A stretch of DNA of 33,310 nucleotides from Fibrobacterales bacterium (GCA_051532035.1 JAOPTW010000024.1:1-33310), one strand, 5' to 3'. Shown: positions 7,136 to 28,919, numbered from the stretch's first letter. Numbers and translations are program-made. Notes: a model not told the origin generated them from the letters alone.

Positions 7136-7190
7136 ACACAACTATTTGTGTCAGCAAAAATGCATACTTATCCGCCATTCAATAAAAGGT
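7136..7190 (-). mobile_element. attI-like site copy 1
   Basis: Minus strand ..ATAAGTATGCATTTTTGCTGACACAAATA|GTTGTGTAAA; homology with the copies at 11439 and 25769 ends at GTT; downstream sequence is the inverted match of the R'' side of attC 5284-5356; no hairpin. Confidence 0.75.
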
Positions 7191-7351
7191 AGCAATACTA
7201 ACAATCACCCTCATATCCTAGAAGCAAGCACTAAAGAACCTACTTCATTTCAAACCACCAAGAAGTACACAGCAAAATAAAAACAAAAAGCCTACCCCAC
7301 AATAGCCCAAAAGTACTAGCCCCCCCCTCCACTACCCCATTCTACCCCAAA

Positions 7352-7385
7352 ACAAAAAAGCACCCATCCCGAAAGATGAGTGCTT
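7352..7385 (-). terminator. Rho-independent terminator (duplicate of the PLD operon terminator)
   Basis: AAGCACTCATC-TTTCGG-GATGGGTGCTT followed by a T-run on the minus strand. Confidence 0.75.
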
Positions 7386-7430
7386 GATGATAAAAGAGGG
7401 AGAATAGGGTCCCCCCCTTCTTACAAAAAT

Positions 7431-7613
7431 CTATGTATTAAACCGCTCAATCTCCTCACGACACCCAACAGCAACCTCCCGCTGCCTCGCCCGTGCAACC
7501 GCATTATCCTCAAACACATCACCCACAATAACAATATTCTCATCGTTAGTTCTGTTAGCAGGCTCTGTATAATTAAACGACCCAAAGATAGTGACCGCAT
7601 CATTAATCGCCAT
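7431..7613 (-). pseudogene. Duplicated 3' fragment of the PLD gene (last 60 codons)
   Basis: MAINDAVTIFGSFNYTEPANRTNDENIV...IERFNT is nearly identical to the C-terminus of 11658..12698. Confidence 0.9.
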
Positions 7614-7794
7614 GAGTCTGTACTGACGTTTAACTAGGCCACTTTTTTTAATATGCAGGCATCAATATGCGCCCTATAATACGATTATTTTTATTGCAAA
7701 GAAACGTCAACTTTCCAGAAGTCGGGGGCTCATTAACATTGTCGTTGATCATTTTCTAGGTTTTATTGGGAAATCATTTACGGCTTATTTACAA

Positions 7795-8901
7795 ATGACT
7801 GACAAAGAGTGCGTATTACACATCACAAATGAAATATCCCTTGGCAAATTAGAATCTCAATCACAGCAATATTACAGAAAACATATTCTTTCCATATGGG
7901 CGGACTTTAAAAAAAACCTTTCAAAAAATCATAAATGTTTTTGGAAAGGATGCAATTCTATAAATACGATTTCAGCACATACCATTAGCAATGCAAATTG
8001 TATTCAAGGATTAGCTGATGACACTAATCACATTAGAACTCCAGCTTATCATATTTTCGATCCTGAGATTAAAATAAAGATCATCGGAATAAATAAGTCA
8101 TCTGTATTTCAGGGCTTTTGTGAAACACATGACAACTTGTTTCAGAATATTGATTCTGTTCACGACGTTCCTACGGAGGATCTTGCTAAGTTCCAACCAT
8201 ATAGGTCACTTTGTAAGGAAATATTTGATTATGAACATTATCTTCAATACTCTGAAAAAACTAATAGACACTGGAAAGAGCTCATTAACAATGAGGCCAA
8301 TATTAAATTACAAGAATATAGAAGACTAAATAATAGTGATTCAGTTAACTATATTCAATTTTTTGATGATAGCCACTTGTATCCTGAACAGCATAAGGCG
8401 AGCAATGATTATTTGCATCATTTAAATGACATTAAAGATAATATGGATAGATTTTACAGCGGTAAATTTGAAAGCCAACCCATGTTTAGAGGTGTGACGT
8501 TACCACTCTCGCTACCAGTAGCACTAAGTGGATGGACACAATACCAATTTGATGACAGTAATTCCATATTATTTTCATTGAATGTAATTCCATACGAAGA
8601 AAAAACATTTGTATTTATCACATCTTATAATGAAGAAGCAGAACGCTTTAAAGCAGTTGTAAACGAATGTTTTAAAAATCCTGTTCATACCATTGAATTC
8701 ATAGAACACTTTATGATAAGAGGTACAGATAATTGGTTTTTATCTCCAAGGCATTGGAACCAAATGACTGATGAAGAAAAAGTAGACTTACAAAAGAGCA
8801 TGCATTTCTCACCGCATTTCATTTATCATAAAAAAGAAATCGACCTATTCAAAATGGAAAAGAAAATCTTAAACAATGCTTCTTTCATAATGCCCACCTA
8901 G
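7795..8901 (+). CDS. Hypothetical protein with Zn-binding HNH-like N-terminal region
   Basis: C-x4-C...SAHTIS...FQGFCETHDNLF motif; 368-aa AT-rich ORF. Confidence 0.7.
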   Translation: MTDKECVLHITNEISLGKLESQSQQYYRKHILSIWADFKKNLSKNHKCFWKGCNSINTISAHTISNANCIQGLADDTNHIRTPAYHIFDPEIKIKIIGINKSSVFQGFCETHDNLFQNIDSVHDVPTEDLAKFQPYRSLCKEIFDYEHYLQYSEKTNRHWKELINNEANIKLQEYRRLNNSDSVNYIQFFDDSHLYPEQHKASNDYLHHLNDIKDNMDRFYSGKFESQPMFRGVTLPLSLPVALSGWTQYQFDDSNSILFSLNVIPYEEKTFVFITSYNEEAERFKAVVNECFKNPVHTIEFIEHFMIRGTDNWFLSPRHWNQMTDEEKVDLQKSMHFSPHFIYHKKEIDLFKMEKKILNNASFIMPT

Positions 8902-9061
8902 AACACCTTTGCAAACTAAGAATGAGCTGAGTCGTCCAATCAAAAAGCCGGGTCTCCTCAACCAAAATGTTTCCATATAAAAGTTATACATAAGGTCTAT
9001 CCAGTTCACAGATGTTCATTTACATTAGAAAGAACATAATGAGAGTTCTTAAAACTTTCAG

Positions 9062-10618
9062 TTGCTATATTATCATATTATATTGAAGGAATTAATCATG
9101 TTCGAACACAAAAAACAGTCTAATTCTCAAAAAATTGGTGATTTTGGTGAAGCCGATTTTATAAAATGGGCTACACGAAAGTCAATAAACCTTGCTAAAC
9201 CACTAACAGATTATGGATTTGATTTTCATGGTCATTTGATTGAAGATAACATTGTAACTGGTAAAATGATTAATGTGCAATGTAAATCGAATGAACAAAA
9301 TAAAAAAGATAAAACGTTTGTACTACATAGAAGTGACGCAACATTATACCTTGCTTCAAACCTACCTATATGCATTGCTGGGATGGATGTAGTAAATGAA
9401 GAAATTTTTGCATGGATTATAGATGAAGAACTAGTTAATATGTTGGTTAAGTTCCTAAAGACAACAAATGAAACTATAACTGTGCATTTTAGTCAATTGA
9501 ACCATGCTGACATTATAGCAGAAAAGATATCAGAAGCAACTAAATCTAGCTACATGTCATACATTAAGAACCTGTGCTTAGAACAGATTTGTGGCCCCAA
9601 TGTCTATGTTGAGTCTATGAATTGCGGCAAGTCTTCTCGCATAATATTTCACACAAATTTTTTAACCAACATAGTTAAACCAGAATCTTTATTTGGAAAA
9701 GACGATAACGAAAAACTAGAAGACATAATCAACATAAGTGTTTTAAGTGCACTTTCAGAGCTTAATATATCACATGATGAATTTCTAATTACAGGTGAAG
9801 TTGGTAGAACATTAGAAATTGGTGCTAAACCAGGCTCTCCCACAACAACTGTCTTAATGTACCCATCTGAAGGAAATACATGCTATAGATTTAAAAGTGG
9901 TATATGTATCTGGATCCGAGAGGTAATTAAAAAGAAAAGGAAGTACAGCCATAAAATTGAGGTTACCGCTGAGCATTCACCTTATAACATAGTTTCATGC
10001 TATGAAGATTTTTATGCATTGGAAATAATTATTGCAAGTGGTGAATTATATATAGATGGTAAAGATTATTCCAAAATACTAAATGCAGCCAAACTTCTTG
10101 CATGTTATTTTGAATATATGGAAACAGTTATACTTGCTCATGAAAAAGGAGTGATATCCTTTGAAGGGGTTGACTTAAAAAGCATTGAAACTAGAGGTGA
10201 TTTTATAACAATCGGAGTAATCTCTAAACTTATAACCACAGACAACATGAATAGCATTATACCAGGTATATATCTTACATATACTGAATCTGATAAAGAT
10301 TTTCATATTAATCACACAATCGGGGATGAATTAAAAAGAGCTATTATACCAATGCCATTTACAATTGCAGGCAAAAGTTACATTGGTAATATTACATGTA
10401 CATTTTATTTTGTTTACAATTCAACAAATGAAATTGTGGGTATGCAATTTGACAAAAGAGAAAAATTTGAAGTAAAAGAGGAAAATTCTATTGGAAAATA
10501 TGATTATCCAGAGCTTTGGACTTATAAAAATTGGCCTTCGTTTTCAATGACTTATGAGGCAAGCCATATTAGTGAAATTAAACCAGACAGGAAGCATTCA
10601 ATGATTATTATTGATTAA
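9062..10618 (+). CDS. DUF4365-like (PD-(D/E)XK nuclease) domain protein
   Basis: IGDFGE...DYGFDF...NVQCKS motif; probable start ATG 9098 after GAAGGA. Confidence 0.78.
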   Translation: MLYYHIILKELIMFEHKKQSNSQKIGDFGEADFIKWATRKSINLAKPLTDYGFDFHGHLIEDNIVTGKMINVQCKSNEQNKKDKTFVLHRSDATLYLASNLPICIAGMDVVNEEIFAWIIDEELVNMLVKFLKTTNETITVHFSQLNHADIIAEKISEATKSSYMSYIKNLCLEQICGPNVYVESMNCGKSSRIIFHTNFLTNIVKPESLFGKDDNEKLEDIINISVLSALSELNISHDEFLITGEVGRTLEIGAKPGSPTTTVLMYPSEGNTCYRFKSGICIWIREVIKKKRKYSHKIEVTAEHSPYNIVSCYEDFYALEIIIASGELYIDGKDYSKILNAAKLLACYFEYMETVILAHEKGVISFEGVDLKSIETRGDFITIGVISKLITTDNMNSIIPGIYLTYTESDKDFHINHTIGDELKRAIIPMPFTIAGKSYIGNITCTFYFVYNSTNEIVGMQFDKREKFEVKEENSIGKYDYPELWTYKNWPSFSMTYEASHISEIKPDRKHSMIIID

Positions 10619-10650
10619 TCTATTGAAAATGATAGATATAAACAACTCAA

Positions 10651-11277: not shown

Positions 11278-11432
11278 AAGTAGCTTCCAATTAACTTCAT
11301 TATTTAATAGTAATAATTATTTACGACCACAGAACATTATTGCTTTTCAAAATAGCTTTATTTTAAATACTGAAAGTGATTTCCAATCAAATACATTGAT
11401 TGAATGATTGATTGATAGGCTAGAAACATTTA

Positions 11433-11486
11433 TACCAACTATTTGTGCCAGCAAAACTGCATACTTCTCCACCATTCAATAAAAAT
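11433..11486 (-). mobile_element. attI-like site copy 2 (downstream of the intact PLD gene)
   Basis: Minus strand GGAGAAGTATGCAGTTTTGCTGGCACAAATA|GTTGGTA; homology with the other copies ends at GTT. Confidence 0.72.
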
Positions 11487-11657: not shown

Positions 11658-12698
11658 CTATGTATTAAACCGTTCAATCTCCCCACGACACGCAACAGCA
11701 ACCTCCCCCTGCCTCGCCCGTGCAACCGCATTATCCTCAAACACATCACCCACAATAACAATATTCTCATCGTTCGTTCTATTAGCAGGCTCCGTATAAT
11801 TAAACGATCCAAAGATAGTGACCGCATCATCAATAACCATAAGCTTGTGATGCAGCTTTCCAAGACCACCTTTGTTCCCTATAAGAGAAATAGAAATACC
11901 CGCCTCGGTGAGGTTATGAGTCGCTGCCCATTTTTGATTACCTTGAAGTCTATCGAGTACACCCGTTATCTGAACGCCTCGTTGCTGTGCTGCAATCAGT
12001 GCATCATCAATACCAGAACTTTGAGCAAAGGTAAAGACCGCAAAATCAATCCGCACCTGCGCCTTAAGAATCTGTTTCATAATCTCAAGCTCGGGTGTAT
12101 GATCTGGTGAGAAGAGTGCCCTAATACGAATCCTATCGACACTACTATTTACCGGAGAGACACTTTTCATAATACTCTCCCTGCCAAACCTACCTGATCG
12201 AATCTCATTAAACTCAATACGGAATTGATCTGAGATCGTCTTATTATGAATGACTATCACATGATTGAGGTTTTTAGTTACCCCGGTATCCGTAAAGTTC
12301 GTTGAACCCGTAAGTACTGAGTCTCCACAGATCATAAACTTCTGATGAAAGATGGCACTATTAAAATCAACCTTCACGTCGATGTCTGCTCTGCACAAGG
12401 CACTAAAGAGTTCTCTGTTTATCTCATGGCTTCCCGATGGTTCAAAAGGGGCTGCTTGTTTTCTTGAAGCAAGGAGGTAATTCTGCTCAAGAACTAAGTC
12501 AATGACTACTCCCCGACTGCGTGCCCGTATCAGAGCTTCGGTAATCTCTGTGTTATCAATCTCTTGAACGGCAACACAAAGGTTTTCTCTCGGCTTTGCA
12601 TCATCAATAAACCCGATGATTGGGTTTATTAATGAATCTGGGCCTCCCTGTTCTTTTGGACCTAAATACAGTTTAAAACTGCGTGCACTATAGCTCAT
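11658..12698 (-). CDS. Phospholipase D superfamily protein (two HKD motifs; nuclease/PLD-like)
   Basis: FHQKFMICGD..TGSTNFT and LHHKLMVIDD..FGSFNYT; start overlaps the upstream stop (TAATG). Confidence 0.92.
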   Translation of the reverse strand: MSYSARSFKLYLGPKEQGGPDSLINPIIGFIDDAKPRENLCVAVQEIDNTEITEALIRARSRGVVIDLVLEQNYLLASRKQAAPFEPSGSHEINRELFSALCRADIDVKVDFNSAIFHQKFMICGDSVLTGSTNFTDTGVTKNLNHVIVIHNKTISDQFRIEFNEIRSGRFGRESIMKSVSPVNSSVDRIRIRALFSPDHTPELEIMKQILKAQVRIDFAVFTFAQSSGIDDALIAAQQRGVQITGVLDRLQGNQKWAATHNLTEAGISISLIGNKGGLGKLHHKLMVIDDAVTIFGSFNYTEPANRTNDENIVIVGDVFEDNAVARARQGEVAVACRGEIERFNT

Positions 12699-13843
12699 TA
12701 GTAACGCTCCGCAATTTCAAGATACGGTGGTTGGCTTGCACCAAAGGTGAGGGATATTCCAATAAGCACACGAAAGATATCATCAACCATCCGTACATTA
12801 TAGAGGTCTTGCCCTTTCTCTGCCTTTACAAACAAACCAAGGCCCGAAGGATAGGTAAAGCTCCCAAAGAGTGAAACATTATAGGGAGTAATCTCTGAAT
12901 GATTCGAAGGCAAGTACTGAGCCGAGACCCCGTACCGTAGTTGCGTCATCTCATTAAACATCATAAGGTAGTGATGCCCTGCGAGCTCAAGCAAATATCT
13001 GTTCATAGAGTAAAACTCTGTATCCAGCGTATTAAACCCTGCAATGGTAAACCCAAAGAGCCTATTGATATATCGAGTATACCCAAGAGTCACCTCAAAG
13101 GCGTCTTCTACCATCCCGGTGCCCTCATGGAACCCCAATACCTTCATGAACTTTAATCTGCCCCGTACAAAATTTGTTGAGAACTCTCCACTCCTTCTAT
13201 TCAGTTGATCACTCAGATTCATTGTCTCTAAATTATCGTACAGAGTACTACAGGTTGAGTCTGCATCTTCGGAACCCCCAAAGGTGCACCCTGCTTGACC
13301 ATTAGAATAATGCCCATGTTCGACCACTGGAGTAATAAAACTATTGATACTACTCACGTATCGTGTAGGAGCATAAGAAACAAACGCCCTATAACTCGGC
13401 ATAGTAACCGGCATTGAATTTTTATACAGCATCCGAATATGGGGATCAAAAACAATTGATGCTCTATGGTAGGTAGTGTCTTGATAGATCGTCGGTGATA
13501 GTTGATCTATAATTGGTATGTTCAGTATTGGCCGCGCCTCCATAACTACTTTCTCATTATAATCATTCCCCGTCGGAGTACTCCACCCTATAAATGGAGT
13601 CTCTTCGAGGGTTTGAAATTGAGAAAAGCCAGAACTTGAAAAAAGTAACACTACTATTACCATAACATACCATGCCCCATATAACTGTTTTGGCAAAGAA
13701 GGCGATACAGTGATATCTTCATCTGTACACTCTTCATCACAGAACGTTGAAGTGATAGTAATGTGTTTTCCTCTTTTACATTTTCTTAACGCTATGATAC
13801 TTGCATTGCCAGTGAGTAACGTATTTTCCATCATTACACTCAT
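12698..13843 (-). CDS. Outer-membrane phospholipase A (OMPLA/PldA)-like beta-barrel protein
   Basis: SMPVTMPSY and HGHYSNGQ (HxSNG catalytic motif), amphipathic beta-strands; signal peptide-like MVIVVLLFSSSGFS suggests the true start may be later. Confidence 0.65.
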   Translation of the reverse strand: MSVMMENTLLTGNASIIALRKCKRGKHITITSTFCDEECTDEDITVSPSLPKQLYGAWYVMVIVVLLFSSSGFSQFQTLEETPFIGWSTPTGNDYNEKVVMEARPILNIPIIDQLSPTIYQDTTYHRASIVFDPHIRMLYKNSMPVTMPSYRAFVSYAPTRYVSSINSFITPVVEHGHYSNGQAGCTFGGSEDADSTCSTLYDNLETMNLSDQLNRRSGEFSTNFVRGRLKFMKVLGFHEGTGMVEDAFEVTLGYTRYINRLFGFTIAGFNTLDTEFYSMNRYLLELAGHHYLMMFNEMTQLRYGVSAQYLPSNHSEITPYNVSLFGSFTYPSGLGLFVKAEKGQDLYNVRMVDDIFRVLIGISLTFGASQPPYLEIAERY

Positions 13844-14118
13844 AACACTGAACGGCCCGATTTCTCAAGGCGCTCATCGGCAGCATAGAACTCACTGCCG
13901 TGGGTATACCGAACTTTGAGAATAGAGAACTCATCTTCACTTTTACACAGTTCTTTAATTTTGCTAAAGTTACGGTTGCTGCATTTGGTGAGCCATACAC
14001 TCTCAGAGAGTGCGAGGTTCTTTTGAAAGAGTCCTGATTGTTCCATGGATTGCAGTTTGTCTAATGGACACTGAATCACGGTCAGGAAATCGAAGTTGTT
14101 TGGAATTGTTATATTCAT
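13840..14118 (-). CDS. Hypothetical protein (first gene of a 3-gene operon)
   Basis: 92-aa ORF with ATGA overlap to the next gene. Confidence 0.5.
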   Translation of the reverse strand: MNITIPNNFDFLTVIQCPLDKLQSMEQSGLFQKNLALSESVWLTKCSNRNFSKIKELCKSEDEFSILKVRYTHGSEFYAADERLEKSGRSVL

Positions 14119-14189
14119 AATTTCTCATCTAAGATAGTTGTCTGCGTAACGTCATTGGTTCTTGTCTAGTAAAACCAATAGTGAATAAC

Positions 14190-14224
14190 AAAAAGGGCAT
14201 GAAGTGAGTCTCCATTACCCTTTC
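14190..14224 (-). terminator. Possible terminator
   Basis: AAAAGGG...CCCTTT imperfect hairpin just after the stop of 14261..15196. Confidence 0.45.
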
Positions 14225-14260
14225 TGCTAAGGATAATGATATTCACTGTCACGGTAGATA

Positions 14261-15196
14261 CTATGCTACGTCAGATGCCTCCTCATCAAGTCCAGACTCT
14301 TTTTCAAAATCGGCTTCGCGCCCTTCTTCTTCAAAGTCTATCAGCTCTTCTATCTCTTCTAAACTAAGGTCCCCCTCAGCATTGTCTGCTTTTGTCTTTT
14401 TATTTTTCTGGCGTAAGTATTTGCTATAAAACAGGTCACGTGATTGTTTATCTTCTTCATATACCAGTCTGGCCCACTTGCGAACTAATTTGAGTGACAC
14501 ATACATCAATGTAAGAGCTTTATCTCTAAGAATGCGCGTTTCAGAAAACACATTACCATCCATAGAAGAGCTTTTATGGCGTCTTCCCAATGTAGACCCA
14601 AGCTCTAATGCTTTTTCAAGCTCGACTTCGGTTACCATCATCTCTGCGAGCTCAGGAATCATCTCTTTACCAATTCTACCAAGGTCAAAGAGATCTTGTA
14701 TGGTATCACTGATTCTGTTGCCCCCTGAGATTTTACTCACAATCGCCTTTTTTACTGGATCTTCATCACAAATAAATTTGATACGAGAGAGTAGCCGTTT
14801 TCTCAGTGCCTTTGCTTCTGCATAGAGCTCAGCCCAAGTTGGCCCAGTATCTTCGCCGGAATTGTGATTAATATTCATATTCGCTTGAGTAAAACGAGCT
14901 GATGCTATCCGTCTATAAAAAAGTTCCGCAATCGGATCCTTGAATCCTTCACCCTTAAATAATTCAAGATTACGCATCAGTACCTCATAATACCCTTCCA
15001 CCTCTTGGAGATAGATATCATTAGGTACTGGTGCCACATGATATTTTGTCATCACCGTATTTTTAATGAGCTCATAATCTTCATTGTAAATTGCTCCGTA
15101 GCTTTGAGACATAGTAGCTACTGGAGATTCAGTAGTAGTGTTAGTAGTTGTTGTTTTATTGTTTTTATTTTTAGACGTCATTATATAACGCTCCAT
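14261..15196 (-). CDS. Conserved hypothetical alpha-helical protein
   Basis: P..IYLQE, DTIQDL.DL...GKE and ILRDKA.T motifs recall a family of unknown function I remember from FCB and deltaproteobacterial genomes (recollection, not searched); acidic tail. Confidence 0.8.
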   Translation of the reverse strand: MERYIMTSKNKNNKTTTTNTTTESPVATMSQSYGAIYNEDYELIKNTVMTKYHVAPVPNDIYLQEVEGYYEVLMRNLELFKGEGFKDPIAELFYRRIASARFTQANMNINHNSGEDTGPTWAELYAEAKALRKRLLSRIKFICDEDPVKKAIVSKISGGNRISDTIQDLFDLGRIGKEMIPELAEMMVTEVELEKALELGSTLGRRHKSSSMDGNVFSETRILRDKALTLMYVSLKLVRKWARLVYEEDKQSRDLFYSKYLRQKNKKTKADNAEGDLSLEEIEELIDFEEEGREADFEKESGLDEEASDVA

Positions 15197-15559: not shown

Positions 15560-15970
15560 AGCTGATTCATGCACTACAATTGAGATTCACGCTAAACACT
15601 TTCCCAAATATCTCAAAGACACCGGCACAATTCATTGCGTATAAGACATTATTCGTGTAGTGCTTTACATCTACGCCCTATAATATGACACAACTGCATT
15701 AGATTTGTTGATTCATGCGTTACCATTTTGATTTACGCTGTAGTCATAGGCCATTCACGAGTAACTCTTTTAGATTCACGCACTATTATTGACATTCATT
15801 CACTTAGTATTTTGATTCACGCACTGTAGCCCTGCACTATTCGTGGTATGTTACTGATTATTGCGGAATTATTAGGCTGTACGAGTGAAGTACTATGGAC
15901 TATTGCTTAATTGGTAGGCTCCATTTGTAAAGGGTTATGGACTATTGCAGAATTGATAGGCTTCACGCCT
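15560..15970. repeat. Degenerate ~21-bp periodic repeat (GATTCAYGC core)
   Basis: ATTCAYG-like cores at about 15565, 15585, 15711, 15731, 15753, 15774, 15794 and 15815; TATGGACTATTGC twice, 42 bp apart. Confidence 0.7.
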
Positions 15971-16273
15971 TAGGACAACCTTACCACGAGGGAAAGCTTA
16001 TGGATTCATTGGGAAAGTACATGTATACGGGGCATCAGCTGCGCTTCACGGCACTTATGCTCTACTATATGCCATCAGTGCTTGCTATTTGGTATAGTTA
16101 GGCAGGGACCGTTGCTGTCCGCAAAGGTATCAGGTACTACTATTTTGATTTGGGCTTGGGGTGTCAGTGACTATTGGGTATTGTGTGCCCTACCAGGCAT
16201 GAAGTAATAGGTGATATAGTGAATGGGTGTTGAACCCTGTGCGCTCTGTATTGGAATCTCCAGTGCTACCCCA

Positions 16274-16560
16274 CCCTCACCGGATCACTCGGGCAAAAGC
16301 CACTCCCATACAAAAACCCCAAGAACATGTCCCGAGCTGTACACAGAATCAGGCCTATCCAACTCTCTGCTCCTTCGACCAGATTCTTTATCATGATACC
16401 CCGTATAGCACATGCTATGCCCAGCATCGGCACGTTCCAGTGGTATTTCCTCTATATACTCCATAGAGCCGAGGACGTTGATTATTACATGAGGAAAGTC
16501 GTCCTTGAATGATGTGCTATAGTCCTTTATGACTGATGCATGGTAGGTGAAGCGGGTAAC
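16274..16560 (-). repeat. ~280-bp repeat copy A (begins at attC crossover GTT)
   Basis: Visibly high identity (roughly 90%) to the copies at 18767, 21257 and 29036. Confidence 0.95.
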
Positions 16561-16626
16561 GTTTGTGAAACGGCAGCAGTGAATTTCATCTATATGGAAA
16601 TTTATTGATGGCTTTTCGTGTTGTGT
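16554..16626 (-). mobile_element. attC-like site (family A)
   Basis: GGGTAAC-GTTTGTGAAACGGCAGCAGTGAATTTC..GGAAATTTATTGATGGCTTTTCGT-GTTGTGT; homologous to 3170 and 27917. Confidence 0.85.
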
Positions 16627-18539: not shown

Positions 18540-18600
18540 ACACAACTAAAGAAGCACCCAATACTGCAACTTCTCTGATAAAAACACAGGTCCTGAACAC
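18540..18600 (-). mobile_element. attI-like site copy 3 (variant type)
   Basis: Minus strand AGAGAAGTTGCAGTATTGGGTGCTTCTTTA|GTTGTGTAAAGAATTAAA; downstream sequence is the inverted match of the R'' side at 16620. Confidence 0.7.
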
Positions 18601-18604
18601 GTCA

Positions 18605-18728
18605 TTGACCACTCCCTAAGAGCACACTGCAACCTCCCGCTCTCTCCAGTGCAATTGCATAACCCTCAAACACATCAGCTACAATGATAATAACTCATCG
18701 TTAGTCGATGAGCAGCCTCTGTATAATA
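18605..18728 (-). pseudogene. Degenerate PLD 3' fragment
   Basis: GCAACCTCCCGCT..GTGCAATTGCATAACCCTCAAACACATCA..ACAAT..CTCATCGTTAG..GTATAAT aligns to the PLD 3' end. Confidence 0.75.
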
Positions 18729-18766
18729 GCAACAATGCCTTCACACCAACACTCAGCTATTAACCC

Positions 18767-19054
18767 ACCCTTACCGGATCACTCAGGCAAAAGCCACTCC
18801 CATACAAAAACTTCAAGAACATGTCCAGAGGTGTACACCGAACCAGGCCTATCCAGCTCTCTGCCCCTTCGACCAGATTCTTTTTCATGATACTCCGTAT
18901 AGCACATACTATACCCGGCATCGGCACGCTCCAGTGGTATTTCCTCTATATACTCCATAGAGCCGAGGAAGTTGATTATTACATGAGGAAAGTCGTCCTT
19001 GAATGATGTGCTATAGTCCTTTATGACTGATGCATGATAGGTGAAGCAGGTAAC
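18767..19054 (-). repeat. ~280-bp repeat copy B
   Basis: Homology to the other copies ends at TAAC 19051-19054. Confidence 0.95.
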
Positions 19055-19138
19055 GAGTGTTTGGTATCCTTCGCAGAGGTCTTGTTTTTTCCACACCTTA
19101 TGCACAGAATGGATACTATAAGTAATAAATTTTTTCAT
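19055..19138 (-). pseudogene. Truncated, frameshifted lipoprotein cassette 5' end
   Basis: Removing one base after ATGAAAAAA gives MKKLLLIVSILCIRCGKNKTSAKDTKHS (signal peptide + Cys); lies ~55 bp after the attC crossover at 19193. Confidence 0.6.
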
Positions 19139-19186: not shown

Positions 19187-19265
19187 CTGTAACGTTTGGA
19201 CGAGTTGGCAGCGTTTTTGCACTTCAGTGTAAAGAAAAAAAGCCTGCGTGCCTCGGCTGTTGGTG
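19187..19265 (-). mobile_element. attC-like site
   Basis: CTGTAAC-GTTTGGACGAG..GCAGCG..TTTGCACT-TC-AGTGTAAA..CTGCG..CTCGGCT-GTTGGTG hairpin. Confidence 0.8.
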
Positions 19266-19390
19266 GTTCGTAGGAATGGGCATGCCTTGGCATAATGTCT
19301 ATTTGGGAGAAAATAAAATATTTTTGTATGAACGTAAGTAGGGATGCTGGTGTGAATATTTTAACAATTTGTTAATGATTATTAACTTAA

Positions 19391-21038: not shown

Positions 21039-21044
21039 TAATTT

Positions 21045-21170
21045 TTCAAATATAAAAATTTCTACTCCACCATGGACGGTGGGTTAACAAAACAAATATA
21101 TTTTCGTTCCTGCATAACAAACTATGCAGTTTCCCAAAGAGATACTCTTGCCCGTCCCTTGATCCCCAAC
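21045..21170 (-). promoter_or_regulatory. Conserved cassette leader with CCACC-N6-GGTGG palindrome and TATATTTG promoter-like element
   Basis: Homologous to 25655-25769; palindrome at 21067-21082; starts with GTTGGGG at 21170. Confidence 0.6.
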
Positions 21171-21256
21171 AAGAATATTCCAATCGTCAATCCAATCAAT
21201 ACGGCAGTTTATTCAGAAAAAGGGAGGGGACTAGAGCCAAAAGAAATCCCCCCCCC

Positions 21257-21543
21257 CCCTCACCGGATCACTCGGGCAAAAGCCACTCCCATACAAAAAT
21301 TTCAAGAACATGTCCAGAGGTGTACACAGAACCAGGCCTATCCAGCCCTCTGCCCCTTCGACCAGATTCTTCTTCATGATACTCCGCATAGCACATACTA
21401 TGCCCGGCATCGGCACGTTCCAGTGGTATTTTCTCTATATACTCCATAGAGCCGAGAACGTTGATTATTGCATTGGGGAAATCATCTTTGAATGATGTGC
21501 TATAGTCCTTTATGACTGATGCATGGTGGGTGAAGTGGATAAC
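21257..21543 (-). repeat. ~280-bp repeat copy C
   Basis: Homology ends at GATAAC 21538-21543. Confidence 0.95.
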
Positions 21544-21636
21544 CGCTCACTTGGACCTTACTCAACCAGTTGAAAAAACAGCACAGACTGAAACAGCATC
21601 ACCATCAGATGAGGATTCACGACCTGAGTAACCAAA

Positions 21637-21730: not shown

Positions 21731-24700
21731 TTAAATTTCTTCAACAACAACATTATCAATAACTACATCAGCACTAATAGCACCAAGGTTAAATACAATT
21801 CGAGCATTCATATCAGTTTGATTCATAGTAAATTCATAACTATATGTACTCATTGTTTCTGTAACAGAAGTCTGTGGAATAGAACCATAGTTTGTCCATG
21901 GTGACCCATCAGTTTCAAGGTGCGCACTAATAGTACGCGCCCATGCCGCGCGAGCATCAAAACTAAAACGGTATCTTTTTCCAGACTCTAACGGTATGTT
22001 TCCTTGTAAGAACTGTACATTCCAATCAGAAGTTCCTGCATTTGAAATATTGACACTACATTCATTAGAATTAACAGTAGTATAAGCACTTGCACCTTCA
22101 AAATTTTGAAGTGTCCAGTCATTCGATCCGTTTCCAAAATCACCATTGGTCACAAGATTAACGCTTGATACCTCATCATTGACGGTAATAGATGCAGTCG
22201 CTTCAAATCCACCATAAGTCATGGTCATAGTAAACGTTCCAACTTCAGTTGCATTAAAACTTGCGTATTTAAACCAGCCACCACCAGTGGTAGTAAAGCT
22301 CGGGAGCCCGATTGACATTGTATTACCAAATTGGTCATACCCTGTATAGCTCACCGATACACCACTGTTAATTGTAGTAACGATTGGGCTTACTGCAATC
22401 GAACTGAGCACTGGAGGTTCATCAGCTACTTCAACAACGATCACGTTATCGATAATAACATCAGCACTGCTCCCCCCAATATTAAATGCAATGCGCGCAT
22501 TCATATCAGTTTCACTCATAGTGAATTCTTGTGTGAATTTCTGCATTGATGTTGTTAGAGAAAAAGGCGAAGTATTTGAATAGTTAGTCCATGGTGAACC
22601 GTCTGTCTCAAGCTTAGCTTCAATGGTTCTATTTTGTACAGAACGAGCATCAAAACTAAAACGGTATTTTTTACCAGCTTCAAGAGGAATAGCTCCTTGA
22701 GTAATTTGTACACTCCATGCTGCAGAGCCCCCATCACTAATACCAGCATGTAACTGCTGTCCTGGCGCTCCGAGAGATGAAGTCCCACTACTTGCCCAGT
22801 TGGTTATGCCATTTGCAAAATCACCATTCAACACCATTGAGTATGCTGATCCATCATCTTCTACGGTAATGTTGGCTGTGGTAGAAAACTGTCCATAAGT
22901 CATTGTTACATTCCAGTTGCCCAATTCTTCTGCGTTAAATGTAGAACCAGTAACAGTACCTCCACCATTAACACTTAATACTGGCTGTGATAAAGCGATG
23001 ACATTGCCATCTTGATCATAGCCACGATAAGTAAAATCAGCAGATGTTCCCAACTGAATAGTCATATCATCAACTTCAACTGACGTCAAAGTAGGCGACG
23101 GTTCATTAGTAAGTTCAATAAGTGAAATATTATCCACATGAACGCTTGCGTTACTTCCACCAAGATTGAATACAATACGCGCATTTAAGTCAGTTTCATC
23201 TGCAACAAAATCATGTACATAGGTTCTTTTATTGTAATCAGTTTCAAAGGCTGTGGTTTTAGAATAATTAATCCATGGTGATCCATCTGTTTCAACTTTA
23301 ACTGATATAGTACGGCTACCACCAGAATATACTGTGAAAGCGAGACGATATTGCTTGCCACTCTCGATTGCCAGGTTACCCTGTCTAAACTGTATATTCC
23401 AGTCGTCAGTACCACCCTCTGTAATAGAAATTGAAGCACTGTAATTAATAATGCTCACATCCGCAACTGCTCCACCAGCATTACCCAGTTCCCATCCATC
23501 TGTTGATTGACTAAAATCTCCATTTACTATTTGTGAAGCAGGCAGTGCTACTGCAAAATCAAAACTCATGTTATCTGAGAGACTTGAAATATTGCTCAAA
23601 ACGAGATCGGAATAATCACCGTCCCACCAACGTGCTTCAGGCTGTGTTTTAGCAGAAAAACTACTGTTATTTGCAGCATAGAAAAAGTCTTCAGCTTCAC
23701 CGGAACTACGGTTGTTTTCTAAGTCATACTGGCCATCTGCTTGTACTACAGAGACTTTAAAATGCCTACTAGCCCAACGTTCATTATTACTGTTATTTCC
23801 ATATTCATCAACATGCCAAATAAGTACTCCTTCACCAGGCATAGTCGAATGGCGATTCTCTTGTTTACGCGCTTCAATATAGTAACGCTCTTGAGCCTCT
23901 GCTGCATTTTGATAAATAAAAATATCTGCATCATTATTTGCTTCAACAAAGTGAGTACCTTGGTTTGAAGCAGTCAAGATTTGTGGAGTAATCCACCCCT
24001 CTGAATGTCTAAAATACGGATTAGGATACTTAGGATTGAGATTTCCACTTGAAGACATGAGGTCAAAAGTACCAGTACCGCGTGAGTCAGAATCATAATC
24101 ATAGGTATCAGACCAGCTAAAAAGCATATGCCCATTCTCATGACAAAAAGTACCAAGTGTTAAATAACTACGCATATCCGTAACTTGATAATCCTTTGAA
24201 GATACCCCATTTGCAGTGAAGCCATATACCGTTGAACGGTGTGGCCATAAACCTTTACTCCAACCTGAACTACGATTCCCTGCATAATACAAGTTTATTG
24301 CATCAATGTAGGTATCATTGTCTGAATCAAATTGCGAGAATTCCATCCCCTCTACATCTCTCAGGTATTCAAGTGCTTCAAGAATAAGCTCACGTGCCTT
24401 AGGTCCTGCAGCTTCAGTGTAATTATCATAGTACGATTTTGGATGTATCGCTCTATAGTACGCCGTAACTACATTGGTGTAGTTTACATGACCATTTGAG
24501 ATCTCATAGAAAAAATCATTTACTGATCCATTGTTTCCATTCGCAGAATACCCTGACTGCTGTAAGAAATTACTGACTTCAGATGGTGAGATTGATCCCT
24601 CTTGATCACTAAAATCAACAAGTATCGTAAGACCGAGTACATTCCCCGAAAGTCCATCAGCCGATACCGCCATTTGAGTACCTGCATTTTGGGTCCCTAA

Positions 24701-25120
24701 CGAGCTGGCCGAAAACTCAAGAGTCTGTTCTTCTCTAGCGCGTCGTGCCTTTTGTCTACGAGATTTTTTCGAAAGCTTCAATCCCTTACGGATTACTTTG
24801 CCCTGTTTATTTTTTCGAACAGTAGTACGTTGTGCACGCATTTTGTTCGATTGATCAATATAACGTTCTTCAGTAGGTAAGAATTCACCACCATCTTCTG
24901 ATACGTCTGCGTATACAATCCAGCCATCCGAATCTCTTACCAGTGTATAGCCATCTAATGTTTCTACGCGTTGGTAAAATTCATCACCCCAAACCTTAAC
25001 CGGTACTACCGAACCATCTGGTTGTTTTAGGTTGAATGCTTCACCGTGTGAAGGAGCTGAATATGCCAGTATTGCTGTTAAAAATACTAAGCATAGCGCC
25101 TTTAATCCTAATTGTTTCAT
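21731..25120 (-). CDS. M6-family (immune inhibitor A-like) metalloprotease with three CBM4/9-like modules and Ig-like spacers
   Basis: Signal peptide; QPDG..WGDEF prodomain; LWPH, FCHENGH (HExxH), FDLMS, GVLIWHVDE; three NGDF...W..Q...GK.YR.SF...ARI.FN.G modules. Confidence 0.92.
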   Translation of the reverse strand: MKQLGLKALCLVFLTAILAYSAPSHGEAFNLKQPDGSVVPVKVWGDEFYQRVETLDGYTLVRDSDGWIVYADVSEDGGEFLPTEERYIDQSNKMRAQRTTVRKNKQGKVIRKGLKLSKKSRRQKARRAREEQTLEFSASSLGTQNAGTQMAVSADGLSGNVLGLTILVDFSDQEGSISPSEVSNFLQQSGYSANGNNGSVNDFFYEISNGHVNYTNVVTAYYRAIHPKSYYDNYTEAAGPKARELILEALEYLRDVEGMEFSQFDSDNDTYIDAINLYYAGNRSSGWSKGLWPHRSTVYGFTANGVSSKDYQVTDMRSYLTLGTFCHENGHMLFSWSDTYDYDSDSRGTGTFDLMSSSGNLNPKYPNPYFRHSEGWITPQILTASNQGTHFVEANNDADIFIYQNAAEAQERYYIEARKQENRHSTMPGEGVLIWHVDEYGNNSNNERWASRHFKVSVVQADGQYDLENNRSSGEAEDFFYAANNSSFSAKTQPEARWWDGDYSDLVLSNISSLSDNMSFDFAVALPASQIVNGDFSQSTDGWELGNAGGAVADVSIINYSASISITEGGTDDWNIQFRQGNLAIESGKQYRLAFTVYSGGSRTISVKVETDGSPWINYSKTTAFETDYNKRTYVHDFVADETDLNARIVFNLGGSNASVHVDNISLIELTNEPSPTLTSVEVDDMTIQLGTSADFTYRGYDQDGNVIALSQPVLSVNGGGTVTGSTFNAEELGNWNVTMTYGQFSTTANITVEDDGSAYSMVLNGDFANGITNWASSGTSSLGAPGQQLHAGISDGGSAAWSVQITQGAIPLEAGKKYRFSFDARSVQNRTIEAKLETDGSPWTNYSNTSPFSLTTSMQKFTQEFTMSETDMNARIAFNIGGSSADVIIDNVIVVEVADEPPVLSSIAVSPIVTTINSGVSVSYTGYDQFGNTMSIGLPSFTTTGGGWFKYASFNATEVGTFTMTMTYGGFEATASITVNDEVSSVNLVTNGDFGNGSNDWTLQNFEGASAYTTVNSNECSVNISNAGTSDWNVQFLQGNIPLESGKRYRFSFDARAAWARTISAHLETDGSPWTNYGSIPQTSVTETMSTYSYEFTMNQTDMNARIVFNLGAISADVVIDNVVVEEI

Positions 25121-25654
25121 TGTGCCCTCTGTAATTATTTATATGGTGGCCCAAAGGTACAATGATTCTCGTACAATCGACACATGCCGTTGACTTATAA
25201 ATGAATACCGTACTCAAAACGTACTTGTATTGAATAACGTAAGCGCAGTCAAAACGCAAAAAACACAATACTTGCTTACATGTATTTTTTTAGAAGTACT
25301 CTTAGGAAATGCTTATTCACAGAGGTATATATTGTATCGCTGTTAAACAATGGAATAGAGGGCTCTCGATTTTTAAGATTGTTTACGAAAGATAATGGAA
25401 ATTGTTAATTCCACAATATGTAGCCATTTAATTAACTGTAATGCAGTACGATATGACAATATCTATGGAGATTGTCATATCGGATAAATCTCCAAGTAAC
25501 TCTGATCGTGATCAGGGTTTTTCAAAGTAAAAAATGTAAAATGAGGCTTTAGGCTACATAAACCTATCATAAATATCGGGGGTTTACAATATCACTTAGG
25601 TCATATGCCATGCCTCATTATTTAATGATAGGCGAATTCAGATTAGAATTCGCC

Positions 25655-25769
25655 TATAGTAATTTCACACCACCATGGACGGTGGCCCTTTGTACAAAAA
25701 TATTTTCTCCCCTGCATAACAATGCTGTCTCCCAAATAAACAACTTTGCCCATTCCTATATCCACCAAC
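25655..25769 (-). repeat. Orphan cassette leader (no cassette ORF follows)
   Basis: Homologous to 21045-21170 and inverted-homologous to 19259-19334. Confidence 0.7.
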
Positions 25770-25820
25770 TATATGTGTCAGCAAAACAACACCCTTCTTC
25801 ACCATTCAATAAAAAATCAG
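25763..25820 (-). mobile_element. attI-like site copy 4
   Basis: Minus strand GAAGGGTGTTGTTTTGCTGACACATATA|GTTGGTG; upstream flank homologous to 7143-7320. Confidence 0.72.
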
Positions 25821-25941
25821 TAATGCTCACAATCACTCTCACACCATAGAATTAGGTACTAAAAAACCTACCCCATTTCAAATCACCAAGAAGTAAGCAT
25901 AAAAACAAAACCCCACCCCCACAAAAGCCCAAAAGTACTAG

Positions 25942-26093
25942 TCACCCACAATAACAATATTCTCATCGTTAGTCCGGTTAGCAAGCTCCGTATAATTAAA
26001 CGACCCAAAGATGGCGACCGCATCATCAAGCACCATAAGCTTATGATGCAGTTTACCAAGACCACCTTTATTCCCTATAAGAGAAATAGAAAT
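25942..26093 (-). pseudogene. PLD gene fragment (second HKD region) with internal deletion
   Basis: Aligns to 11746-11897; joined to the attI flank at TCACCCACAA. Confidence 0.88.
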
Positions 26094-26448
26094 ATAGAGC
26101 AATTGAAAATCGATACTTCACACGGAGCAGTTTAATGAGTTTTGTAATTTTGATAATGGAGGCTCAATTGCCCCCAAAAGCTAGCATGGGTGTAGGCAAC
26201 AACCCTGTAAATACATAGTGCATGAATATTTTTTGTGAAATCAGCAAGAGTACCACTCTCAAAACGACATTGGAAAGCTTTGAGTTCCCTATAGCGATAA
26301 GTGAGCCAGGTCAGTTCAATAAACTGCAAATAAAATCCGGACAACATAAATGAATAATTCATGTGATTTACGCAAGATGGATTTCACCTTCAGCTCTTAA
26401 AGTTGGCAGAAGGTTAGAGTGAGGATGAAATGGAATAATATTTATAAG

Positions 26449-27774
26449 CTATTCTTCTGCGCCACAATCACAATCAGGATCGTCACAATCAATTAACCCA
26501 TCTTCATCATCATCTTTCTCATTATCACAGTAATGATCTTCAGTTACCGTAATACCATACCTTAAACATATGCTATCAGGATAACCTCTTTCATCAATTG
26601 AATTTTTACAAAATGGTCGAATCACTTCCGTACGACACACATCTAACTGTTTATATTTTGACCAATCTTCTGTACAATCAAAATCAGAATAGTCCACAAT
26701 ACCTGGCGAAGTATATGTAACGGTGCAAGATTTTCCATCATACTCATACCTTGTTTCTCTCAAAACACCTGTTTCAACTACATTATAAGACTGATAAACA
26801 TTTAAGTCTATATCCACCTCTTCTTGCCAGTTGTTACAATCATATATTATATAATTAGAATCAAGCCCAATACTTGGATTAGACCAGGATATACTTTTAC
26901 TAAAAACGTCATGTGCATAGCAATTAAATGAAAAGCTTCCTTTTATTACCATTTGATTATTTTGAACAGACATTTCCTGGACTGATTTTGTTACTGACAA
27001 ACTTGGGAGCGTATCGGTTTTATGAATAACATTTTCAATACATTCACTTTTGGCGATATCTAAATATCTTTTATTGTCGGATACCATCCAAACACCGTCA
27101 TCAAATGAATTCCCATTACCAATATATTTCTTATATAAACAATTTGAACGATAGTCTCTAAATGTATTATCAACAATTGAATATTTTTTGTCTATATTGC
27201 CAGGTTCGAATATAGTACCTTCTTCTTTGCAAGACTTTCTATTGGTCAATGAATACACACTGTCACTTACTATTTCAATCAATGAAATTTCTTCTAGATC
27301 AATGGTATAGGTATAGTCCTCTTGTTCTTTAATACGTTCGAGCTCTTGCCATGCTTCTAAAAATTCTATATAAGCCGAAACACAAGCCTCATCGGTACAC
27401 GAATCATAATCACTGGCATCTAAATAGGCACTTTTTTTTAACTCAGCATTTTCAAATGCGGCATAAATGTCGCCATTTACATTGACAGGCTTCTCTTCAT
27501 TTGATTCACCATTATTCATTGCACTAGAGTGCTCATAAGAACCACCTAAATCTGTAAATAATTGACTAGATCCTATAGCAGTTATTGAATTAGAAGATTC
27601 ATTATTTGATTCACCATCGCTAATAGAAGAACTCACCAAAGTAGAAGATGATTCTTCATTGATTGCAACATCTGAATCCTCAAAGGGATTGCAAGATGCT
27701 AGAAGTAAAAAAAATAGTGATACAATAACTAAATAATGCATAATGAACCTCAAATACAAAAACACAAGGTTCAA
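26449..27774 (-). CDS. Cassette gene: Cys-rich lipoprotein with C-terminal DDDxDGLIDCxDPDC motif
   Basis: Probable start ATG 27741; LLASC lipobox; Ser-rich linker; acidic Ca-binding-like C-terminal repeat. Confidence 0.85.
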   Translation of the reverse strand: MNLVFLYLRFIMHYLVIVSLFFLLLASCNPFEDSDVAINEESSSTLVSSSISDGESNNESSNSITAIGSSQLFTDLGGSYEHSSAMNNGESNEEKPVNVNGDIYAAFENAELKKSAYLDASDYDSCTDEACVSAYIEFLEAWQELERIKEQEDYTYTIDLEEISLIEIVSDSVYSLTNRKSCKEEGTIFEPGNIDKKYSIVDNTFRDYRSNCLYKKYIGNGNSFDDGVWMVSDNKRYLDIAKSECIENVIHKTDTLPSLSVTKSVQEMSVQNNQMVIKGSFSFNCYAHDVFSKSISWSNPSIGLDSNYIIYDCNNWQEEVDIDLNVYQSYNVVETGVLRETRYEYDGKSCTVTYTSPGIVDYSDFDCTEDWSKYKQLDVCRTEVIRPFCKNSIDERGYPDSICLRYGITVTEDHYCDNEKDDDEDGLIDCDDPDCDCGAEE

Positions 27775-27916
27775 AGGATACTAATTTTCATTATAAAATA
27801 CTAGAGCTTCGTCTTCCCATATTCATTCTCATTGTACTTAATGATTGGTTATCTTGACCCTATCATTTCATAAACTACTGCTATGGAAACTTGGCCTTAG
27901 TGGCGGGAACACTTTC

Positions 27917-27989
27917 CACCAACGTTTGCAAAACGGCAGCTGTAAATCCCATCTTTAAGGGGATTAATTGATGCCTTTTGCTGTTGGGC
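27917..27989 (-). mobile_element. attC-like site (family A)
   Basis: CACCAAC-GTTT-GCAAAACGGCAG..AAATCCC..GGGGATT..TTGATGCCTTTTGC-T-GTTGGGC. Confidence 0.87.
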
Positions 27990-28098
27990 TCAGTAGGTGA
28001 TTATAGATGTTGTTTCACCTAAAAAATTTATTTACAACGGTTTAACCCGTAATTAGGACGATAGAGGGTGGGCACTTTAAATATTACACTTATTTTGA

Positions 28099-28722
28099 TT
28101 AAATATTCGTTGGATTAAAAGACACATTCATTATATCAACGTCTTCTTTATGTAACCCGTATTTTATTACAATATTTTTTAATTCATTATATATTCGATT
28201 ATATGGAACGACCATAAGCATCATCTTGTTATGAATTAAAATTGCGCCTTTCTCAGCAGCCATTAACTCCTGACCCAACATATCTGTTTTATATTTTTGC
28301 TCTAACCACCTATGTTCAGTAAGGTGTCCTTTAAAGTGCGCAGTGAATTCACCTTGTGTCCCATTGATCACATCAACTACATGCCAGTTCCAGTTACTTT
28401 TTGACCCTTCTAATGTTTGATTTAAAGATATCATTTTAATGACTGTTGCCCCCTTAGTAATAACCCAAAAATAAGAAGGCAGTGAAGTGGAAAAATTCCA
28501 GACGTCATCAACTGTTGGTGTTTTAGAGATAAATACTGAAGAATTTGGATTGTGAATATTGTTTAAAATTGTGTAATAATTTTGAGAAATAGAGTACCCT
28601 TCAAAATTTTCGACGTTAAATGAAATTGAATTAAATATAGGATTCCCATTTGAATCAGTTGTATTCCTATGTCCAGCGCACGAAACAAGAAGCATTAATA
28701 CTGCTAACAATAAAATTTTCAT
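28099..28722 (-). CDS. Cassette gene: hypothetical lipoprotein
   Basis: MKILLLAVLMLLVSC lipobox; AAGGA RBS. Confidence 0.88.
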   Translation of the reverse strand: MKILLLAVLMLLVSCAGHRNTTDSNGNPIFNSISFNVENFEGYSISQNYYTILNNIHNPNSSVFISKTPTVDDVWNFSTSLPSYFWVITKGATVIKMISLNQTLEGSKSNWNWHVVDVINGTQGEFTAHFKGHLTEHRWLEQKYKTDMLGQELMAAEKGAILIHNKMMLMVVPYNRIYNELKNIVIKYGLHKEDVDIMNVSFNPTNI

Positions 28723-28855
28723 ACAAGTCCTTGGTTATTATTTATGAATACTGACATAAAACCAAATATAGTAATTAGCGCCACTAGGACGGTGGCGCCA
28801 ACCGATGTAAAGAAATTTCTTCTATTTATCTATTCACTTTCCTATCACCTATTGG

Positions 28856-28915
28856 GCCCAACTACATAAGTACACAATATTGGCTACGTCTCTGGTAGAA
28901 ACACAGGTACTGAGT
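28856..28915 (-). mobile_element. attI-like site copy 5 (variant type)
   Basis: Minus strand AGAGACGTAGCCAATATTGTGTACTTATGTA|GTTGGGCCCAATAGGTGAT; downstream sequence is the inverted match of the R'' side at 27983. Confidence 0.7.
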
Positions 28916-28919
28916 ACTT

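Follow-up and report, generated by a model that had tools for sequence, protein, structure and literature searches.

What can sites of the attI type be doing in a cassette array that has no integrase? By definition an integron combines one integrase gene with one adjacent attI, and attC clusters in which no integron integrase is present (CALINs) are usually read as decayed or orphaned. The question is raised by a stretch of DNA from a Fibrobacterales bacterium (GCA_051532035.1, JAOPTW010000024.1:1-33310), here called the window, which comprises 33,310 nucleotides (nt) and is the entire contig C24 of an assembly of 5.25 Mb (130 contigs, ~40% G+C). Scans with Pfam and IntI models found no recombinase gene in this 33.3-kb contig, yet its array contains five attI-like sites, each behind a phospholipase D (PLD) gene or a 3' fragment of it. 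We propose, with a probability of about 0.6, that the five are additional copies, each without an integrase gene, of the double-stranded attI belonging to a second, non-canonical integron, that a recombinase encoded elsewhere would act on them in trans, and that the units ending in them would have been mobilised. As cassette entry points in an integrase-free array, such sites would explain how arrays of this kind continue to acquire genes.

Five attI-like sites and the cassette boundaries they mark

The minus-strand pattern on which the original prediction was built, in the form WTTG-N10-TAGTTG, is found exactly five times in the window, on the minus strand in each case (7139-7158, 11436-11455, 18543-18562, 25766-25785 and 28859-28878); the mean in shuffled sequences was 0.24, and none of 100 shuffles reached five. 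A longer pattern, which includes the GAGAAGTATGCA-like stretch also noticed there upstream of the sites, finds the same five only, with 0-2 mismatches. Both patterns were taken from the sites themselves and these counts describe uniqueness within the window, not an independent test. We name each site by the position of its G in G|TT, where the bar marks the crossover point (Table 1). They divide into two sequence variants, one comprising 7142, 11439 and 25769, the other 18546 and 28862. Every site lies ~75-290 nt downstream of the end of the intact PLD gene or of a 3' fragment, and these, as well as a sixth PLD piece, were all located as predicted. Between PLD end and site, most copies have a hairpin resembling a terminator, and a G-rich spacer.

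The collections searched contain only two genomes of the genus, the source genome and a sister, G001. A table of 15 sites drawn from two genomes reveals a left arm of 30-50 nt conserved in the two variants. All 15 end in (T/A)AG|TTG and are followed by unrelated sequence, that is, the homology between copies ends at G|TT(G), the break noted in the original prediction. To the left of the crossover there are one to three tandem imperfect palindromes of the GAGAAGTA type, which are candidate accessory repeats (compare DR1/DR2 of attI1). Besides the five in the window array, the genome has at least six further copies of the site in other places.

The attC sites of the same array are of a different nature. 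They are seven imperfect hairpin repeats of 65-79 nt, located downstream of minus-strand open reading frames (ORFs), six of which were first seen through repeat families and folds. All have the attC layout, with an R'' ending AAC (once AAT), paired arms and an R' starting GTT; from layout and orientation the array reads on the minus strand, which carries most long ORFs of the window. For their detection we have used a home-made nhmmer profile of 11 sites plus single-sequence folds, not the standard covariance model. The profile recovers all seven (E 1e-14 to 7e-9) and finds similar attC on C28, C42, C12, C3, C11 and other contigs. As single-stranded DNA, five of the seven fold better than their shuffles (z -2.1 to -4.2) and two do not (-1.24 and +0.60). 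RNAalifold predicted no pairs on a MAFFT alignment of the 11 sites because that alignment is not structural, and a first covariance model (R1), with an automatic structure of 5 pairs, was discarded. A constrained-fold scan for AAC...GTT hairpins recovered only 3 known attC against a background that overlaps the true sites, and no statistic was drawn from it. The five attI-like sites, on the other hand, are not attC, as both the hairpin partner and the fold signal are wanting. Four of them lack an AAC triplet on the array strand at 40-200 nt upstream, and the fifth has only a distant one within its PLD fragment; the upstream region is G+T-rich (15-32 C per 200 nt), and 73-nt folds ending at the five sites give z values of -1.45, +0.38, -1.32, +0.43 and +0.60.

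A way to find out where cassettes begin is to compare the 7-mer starting at the G with the reverse-complemented R'' of the attC that comes next, which we have done for all twelve minus-strand junctions. The match is perfect (7/7) at four of the five sites (Table 1), one more than had been claimed, and 6/7 at each of the two plain attC-to-attC cassettes. For pairs of attC with an attI-like site between them, the R' of the upstream attC gives only 3-4/7 in three cases; the fourth reaches 7/7 because attC27950 and site 25769 share one 7-mer. It follows that the cassettes ending in attC 27917, 19187, 16554 and 5284 begin at attI-like sites. Site 11439 breaks the rule because no attC lies between it and the next attI-like site, 7142. 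Five further sites (two adjacent to a recombinase gene, two in the syntenic locus of the sister genome and one beside a PLD gene in the sister) gave 7/7 four times and 6/7 once. The sites mark cassette boundaries at G|TT. They join at G|TT and miss the R''/L'' arm, as an attI does, although in the window none adjoins an integrase gene. On the absence of a hairpin partner and on the reality of the boundaries, the attI-like reading of the original prediction is supported.

Many cassettes open with a module of ~95 nt, consisting of two small hairpins and an A/T-rich stretch, that recurs inverted just inside the R'' of the attC of the same cassette, and the attC is thus flanked by long inverted repeats (copies at 25670-25765, minus; 19266-19361, plus; 21067-21165; and L040 8246-8345 and 9343-9431). 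This module may serve as a promoter of the cassette or extend the stem of the attC. At ~21165 (minus) there is a possible sixth, more diverged attI-like junction (...ATATTCTT|GTTGGGG) after the third copy of the D1 repeat (see below), with the cassette-start module directly after it.

A recombinase beside the same site and a separate canonical IntI

The window is an integrase-free array set between conserved flanks. Backbone genes border the array on either side, and positions 1-2158 and 33039-33310 match contig C115 of the sister genome at 94% and 96%. The interior between these syntenic flanks measures 30.9 kb in the window versus 19.1 kb in the sister, and its content differs. The sister interior has two intact attI-like sites (each 7/7 complementary to the next attC), two further degenerate ones, three attC sites, one unit of D1 plus a site arm, one separate PLD fragment and one fragment of gene C of the PLD operon. 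The absence of a recombinase gene between backbone borders makes an integrase acting in trans, as originally suggested, plausible.

Of a degenerate 16-nt motif derived from three window sites, the 5.25 Mb contain four copies, namely those three and one on C3, which lies ~150 nt upstream of, and divergent from, a gene for a 370-aa (amino acid) tyrosine recombinase. About 36 nt across the junction of site 25769 match this C3 copy, which is followed by cassettes and then by an attC of the same family with 7/7 complementarity. The orthologue in the sister genome (55% identical, on G001:C46) has upstream three tandem GAGAAGTA-type imperfect palindromes, the last of them ending TTTTAG|TTG, and same-family attC follow it too, again with 7/7 complementarity. 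Between site and recombinase gene there are ~150-190 nt across the two genomes. The best match of this repeat stretch in the source genome is a PLD-linked site on C23 (83% over 112 nt) that carries the same three tandem repeats. Both recombinase genes sit at the border between 10 kb of backbone (88% identical) and an array. Hence the copy beside an integrase gene that the original prediction had proposed to look for does exist, in the form of homologous sites adjoining a tyrosine recombinase gene on C3 and in the sister. A search of genome contigs for the recombinase found a close relative only in the sister genome (1 of 12 loci).

This recombinase matches NF040815 (NCBIfam, XerA-type) with 235.8 bits (cut-off 220) as well as PF00589, and the HxxR, H and Y catalytic motifs are visible in its BLASTP alignment. 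Against the IntI model TIGR02249 it obtains 186 bits (cut-off 265), in a two-piece match that skips profile positions 180-237, and its BLASTP alignment with the canonical IntI of the genome has gaps at the IntI-specific domain. Two-piece match and gaps together indicate that the protein is without the domain by which the IntegronFinder paper (PMC4889954) defines an IntI. Its best solved relative is XerA (3.8e-41), ahead of IntI4 (2a3v, in two stretches). Its close relatives are four proteins, all with NCBI as their source and one of them from a Fibrobacterales metagenome-assembled genome, and the next ones are Xer-like proteins of ~270 aa with ~42% identity, many from Patescibacteria. In summary, it has the catalytic residues of a tyrosine recombinase and the position of an IntI, adjacent to an attI and an attC array, without the IntI domain.

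The only protein of the source genome above the cut-off of the IntI model, among several lower-scoring tyrosine recombinases, is encoded on C27 (G000:C27:7927-9015; L024 1928-3016). It scores 286.8-288 bits (cut-off 265) and the IntI insertion is present. Beside its gene there are a different junction and then a short attC of another type, and the profile of the window attC family found no match on C27 with E below 4. The canonical IntI locus of the sister (G001:C108) likewise has its own junction type and a perfect R''/R' pair of different sequence; the IntI orthologue at this locus is split in two and has a TGA inside. An IntI-like recombinase on C36 has no site of the window type nearby. 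The adjacencies in both genomes suggest two separate systems, with the window belonging to the Xer-like one. Thus, while a trans-acting integrase remains a plausible part of the original prediction, its identity would have to be revised: the partner is probably the Xer-like recombinase without the IntI-specific domain, and not the canonical IntI, which has attI and attC types of its own.

How the site could have multiplied

The original prediction saw in the five sites an attI platform that had been repeatedly duplicated, each copy seeding a new array. Neither part was borne out. All five lie within one array locus. The copies of PLD end plus attI are 63-91% identical (the PLD fragments fall in the same range when compared with the intact gene) and belong to two variants, which makes plain in-situ duplication unlikely, and the 5' ends of their PLD fragments are heterogeneous. 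Repeated acquisition or mobilisation appears to fit the copies better.

In the mechanism that we favour, the Xer-like recombinase of the C3 type would insert attC cassettes, in trans, at the G|TT of each copy. Segments ending in PLD 3' end, terminator and attI would in turn be cassettes that terminate in attI, comparable to the delta-attI type of class 1 and class 2 integrons, and would be moved through recombination between attI and attC or between two attI sites. Five units of the window (Table 1) fit this architecture, with an attC/attI crossover upstream and an attI-type site downstream, and the G|TT on both sides suggests that such segments have themselves moved as cassettes; their mobility is proposed by analogy. 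Movement of this kind would be the source of the copies both in the array and elsewhere in the genome. Mobilisation as attI-terminated cassettes is our best guess for the route of multiplication, and homologous recombination in the PLD 3' end probably contributed too.

One class of these units is recognisable by the D1 repeat. D1 (300 nt) corresponds to the 3' part of X, a small gene that is intact as a 119-aa ORF at 18779-19138. In copies 1 and 4 the cut falls precisely at the G|TTACC of the attC immediately upstream, and the reading frame is kept in all four, one with an in-frame deletion of 24 nt; more copies are found on C13, C9, C65 and C42. The full unit (16560-11439, ~5.1 kb) consists of D1, 1 kb of non-coding DNA with repeats, the PLD operon and the site. 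Two counterparts of only 0.45-0.5 kb (18546-19060 and 28862-29328) keep D1, a PLD fragment and the site, and one more is found in the sister.

The PLD gene is the last of a four-gene operon that recurs on C13, C23, C44, C11 and in the sister; three intact operons and many remnants are found in the source genome. The PLD protein matches the PLDc active-site motif and both HKD motifs are visible in its translation, where no N-terminal signal sequence is evident on reading; NCBIfam and PADLOC DrmC/NucT-like matches fall below their cut-offs. Homologues of 33-60% identity are common in metagenomes (59 loci), but none was found beside genes A, B or C (tblastn on the 59 loci, phmmer on the ORFs of 15). 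None of proteins A, B and C belongs to a Pfam, NCBIfam or PADLOC family. The model of protein C is a beta-barrel (predicted local distance difference test, pLDDT, 63.5; predicted template modelling score, pTM, 0.67), for which Foldseek returned OMPLA, autotransporter and porin barrels (E 3.5e-6 to 1e-4) and an Atlas look-up only unnamed clusters and one OMPLA-family lead. Family C has 7 members in a large protein collection. The model of protein A gave no Foldseek match at E<=0.001. We have treated the operon as cargo, with no sign of recombination functions, whose 3' end would happen to carry the site. A mobility function encoded by the operon was considered as a candidate and rejected, given that A has no fold match, C is barrel-like and all three proteins are without a family.

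Linkage of PLD and site recurs in the sister, whose only intact PLD operon is orthologous to that on C13 (93%). The sites and cassettes that follow these two operons differ. The orthologous block (G000:C13:312359-317433 and G001:C3:136283-141716) has unrelated left flanks, with neither attC nor GTT junction at its left boundary. It starts at the end of a divergent gene of 263 aa with no family match, paralogues of which lie near PLD fragments on C89 and C44. This block may be a discrete unit in its own right.

A number of observations weigh against the reading proposed here. The C3 recombinase is devoid of the IntI-specific domain (~35 aa, near patch III), which in the corresponding sections of PMC4889954 is tied to attC recognition. 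Its pairing with the site was seen in two genomes (n=2), and the source genome contains variant-1 sites, yet the site beside its single such recombinase is of variant 2. The 11-site profile detected no attC in segment 11439-7142 nor in the DNA that follows the C13 PLD gene. Twelve PLD fragments have 5' ends scattered over ~10 positions (nt 800-942 of 1041) without a GTT in common, so that these truncations are not explained by site-specific recombination alone. Finally, recombination events were not observed. The contigs of the one public sequencing run in which this DNA is present break at repeats, and the joints listed from them are cross-matches of paralogous copies, neutral with regard to excision. 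Single contigs of this run do span sites 7142, 11439 and 18546 with no differences, but the run may be the source of the assembly and the bridging is not independent support.

In a rival explanation site-specific recombination had no part in the multiplication and the attI copies were passengers. Incoming DNA, circular or linear, carrying a PLD 3' end would integrate Campbell-like into the resident PLD, and each event would leave another 3' fragment with its downstream DNA. Such tandem accretion accounts well for fragments that always keep the last 100-240 nt only, with 5' ends that vary, for PLD paralogues that are mosaic (82-98% in 100-nt windows), for the loss of homology between orthologous operons at the PLD stop codon and for C13, where PLD fragments punctuate large cargo without detectable attC. 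The exact G|TT start, at an attC or attI, of the units that end in an attI-like site is left unaccounted for, as is the match of cassette start and own attC at four of five sites, and the divergence of the fragments from the intact gene (63-91% identity) would make the events old or their sources different. We consider it unlikely as the main process. The mobile entity could also be the PLD operon itself, an autonomous element with the site as its right end, the short D1-PLD-site units as internal deletions and an operon-encoded activity (e.g. transesterification by the HKD enzyme) as the motor. The full unit, the short units that keep both ends (including that of the sister) and the abundance of intact and remnant operons would all agree with this. 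However, the remaining products of the operon resemble an outer-membrane barrel and a helical protein and not DNA enzymes, D1 is no dedicated end but the 3' part of a small, unrelated gene, the C13/sister block has another left end without D1, and what forms the right end is an attI whose recombinase gene lies elsewhere, all of which leaves this explanation with very little credit.

A different doubt concerns the enzyme. The canonical IntI of C27 might serve these attC and attI-like sites, the Xer-like protein being a bystander such as a backbone Xer. The C27 protein does pass the IntI model and has the insertion, IntIs tolerate diverse attC sites (PMC12901181), and the missing domain of its competitor is the one linked with attC recognition (PMC4889954, same sections). 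We nevertheless hold it rather improbable that it is the partner. Its own, different attI and attC types stand beside it in both genomes; the sister arrays hold different cassettes in spite of the interrupted IntI; the Xer-like gene is 55% identical where the adjacent backbone is 88%, and the adjoining site type differs along with the gene; and the IntI-like recombinase on C36 is likewise without such a site. As for degenerate attC or chance secondary sites at a GTT, they would share the G|TT crossover with true attC, and the use of secondary sites by IntI-type enzymes is on record in part of the literature. Given that four of the five sites have no R'' partner, that none has a hairpin signal and that a left arm is conserved in 15 sites, two of them beside a recombinase gene, we give this explanation hardly any weight.

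Returning to the copies of a second attI, a broader picture can be drawn, which we put forward tentatively and as somewhat more likely to be wrong than right. The genus would have a second integron without IntI, in which a Xer-like recombinase captures ordinary attC hairpin cassettes at its own attI; this attI would have escaped on the 3' end of the PLD operon as an attI-terminated cassette, seeding and interspersing integrase-free arrays, with one enzyme in trans and many docking sites along the chromosome.

Relation to known systems and other features of the locus

Sedentary chromosomal integrons, such as the Vibrio arrays, have a fixed recombinase gene at the border of a hypervariable array with homogeneous attC. 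The present system resembles them in its fixed recombinase at the array border, in attC that are homogeneous within the genome and in cassettes that differ among close relatives; it departs from them in a recombinase without the IntI domain, in a multi-copy, dispersed attI and in a canonical IntI integron that coexists separately. Genomic islands that target the 3' ends of tRNA or protein genes leave tandem 3' fragments of the target, and here too an intact PLD gene is found with a series of its own 3' fragments parted by cargo. These PLD fragments, however, share no crossover point and lie on both sides of the intact gene, and the precise boundaries are at the attI-like G|TT and not inside PLD. 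With Xer/dif and the integrative mobile elements exploiting Xer (IMEX) the system has in common a Xer-like recombinase, XerA being the best solved relative, and a dif-like imperfect palindrome in the variant-1 sites. Unlike in those, the exchange point is ~9 nt outside the palindrome, at G|TT, and the partners are folded hairpins of the attC type in arrays.

CALINs are attC clusters without an integron integrase; attI has no place in their definition, since for most integrons it is unknown and it was not searched for (PMC4889954). With seven attC, no integrase gene and backbone on either side the window counts as one, apart from its five attI-type sites. Another parallel is found in the delta-attI cassettes. 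The portion of PMC12901181 that describes them reports that IntI1 excises and inserts ORFs with an attC/attI upstream and an attI-derived site downstream. As in those, the units of the window have an attI-derived site in place of attC at their 3' end, within an array, and are bounded by G|TT crossover points. The window-type site differs in keeping a long left arm, in which on C23 as many as three tandem repeats are found, in being tied to one gene end (PLD) with five copies in one integrase-free chromosomal array and more elsewhere, in being also a landing point for ordinary attC cassettes and in having an associated recombinase that is not an IntI. Beyond the delta-attI cassettes, the passages retrieved in a full-text literature search mentioned neither a multi-copy, PLD-linked attI nor a recombinase devoid of the IntI domain with an attC array next to it.

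The system belongs with integrons, CALINs and delta-attI cassettes, and the chance is considerable that it also captures cassettes by means of a recombinase devoid of the IntI domain. Should the Xer-like recombinase prove to be the enzyme, the capture of attC cassettes would not be limited to proteins with that domain. This would bear on the origin of integron integrases from Xer recombinases, and software demanding the IntI domain would label such systems integrase-less.

Table 1. Coordinates of sites, units, genes and repeats in the window.
Feature	Position	Strand	Remarks
attI-like site, variant 2	7139..7187	-	G of G|TT at 7142; next cassette start 7/7 to R'' of attC 5284-5356
attI-like site, variant 2	11436..11484	-	G at 11439; 219 nt past the stop codon of the intact PLD gene
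attI-like site, variant 1	18543..18576	-	G at 18546; 7/7 to R'' of attC 16554-16626
attI-like site, variant 2	25766..25814	-	G at 25769; 7/7 to R'' of attC 19187-19265
attI-like site, variant 1	28859..28892	-	G at 28862; 7/7 to R'' of attC 27917-27989
attC	3170..3241	-	fold z -3.87
attC	5284..5356	-	fold z -4.22
attC	16554..16626	-	fold z -1.24, weak
attC	19187..19265	-	fold z +0.60, no support from folding; supported by profile (E 5.5e-12) and R'' complementarity
attC	27917..27989	-	fold z -2.14
attC	29292..29359	-	fold z -2.88
attC	30507..30573	-	R'' ends AAT; fold z -3.44
Units ending in an attI-like site instead of attC	29298-28862, 27923-25769, 19193-18546, 16560-11439, 11439-7142	-	
Intact PLD-family gene, 346 aa	11658..12698	-	two HKD motifs, Nuc/DrmC-like; PLDc_2 in two stretches, E 9e-43
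Three genes upstream of PLD	12698..15196	-	four-gene operon, PLD last
Operon gene C	12698-13843	-	predicted outer-membrane beta-barrel
Operon gene B	13840-14118	-	92 aa
Operon gene A	14261-15196	-	all-helical model
PLD 3' fragment	7431-7697	-	aa 259-346, with 2 stop codons; between it and site 7142 a terminator hairpin and a G-rich spacer
PLD 3' fragment	~18621-18727	-	from ~nt 898 of the gene; fused to D1 gene fragment
PLD 3' fragment	25935-26096	-	aa 267-320; terminator deleted
PLD 3' fragment	~28943-29006	-	from ~nt 942; fused to D1
Sixth PLD piece	32907-33026	-	aa 286-325; no site after it; adjoins conserved LuxR-type flank gene
D1 repeat, 300 nt	16267..16566	-	other copies 18761-19060, 21250-21549, 29029-29328

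Rfam and tRNA scans of the window gave no match. The cargo found among the PLD-linked sites includes a DUF4365 protein (window 9062-10618, plus strand) with weak similarity to an Aga-type restriction endonuclease, and an ApeA (HEPN) and a KAP NTPase follow the C13 PLD gene (L025 15018-16250 and 16949-18829). Large carbohydrate-active enzymes are also apparent cassette cargo, namely a protein of 1129 aa with three CBM_4_9 domains and an internal tandem duplication of 693 nt (window 21731-25120) and a GH5 cellulase with fn3 and CBM domains (window 30687-32585). An 11-nt TTGATTCACGC-like motif is repeated about eight times at 15560-15830, partly in a register of 21 nt or 63 nt, within the non-coding DNA (1 kb) upstream of operon gene A.

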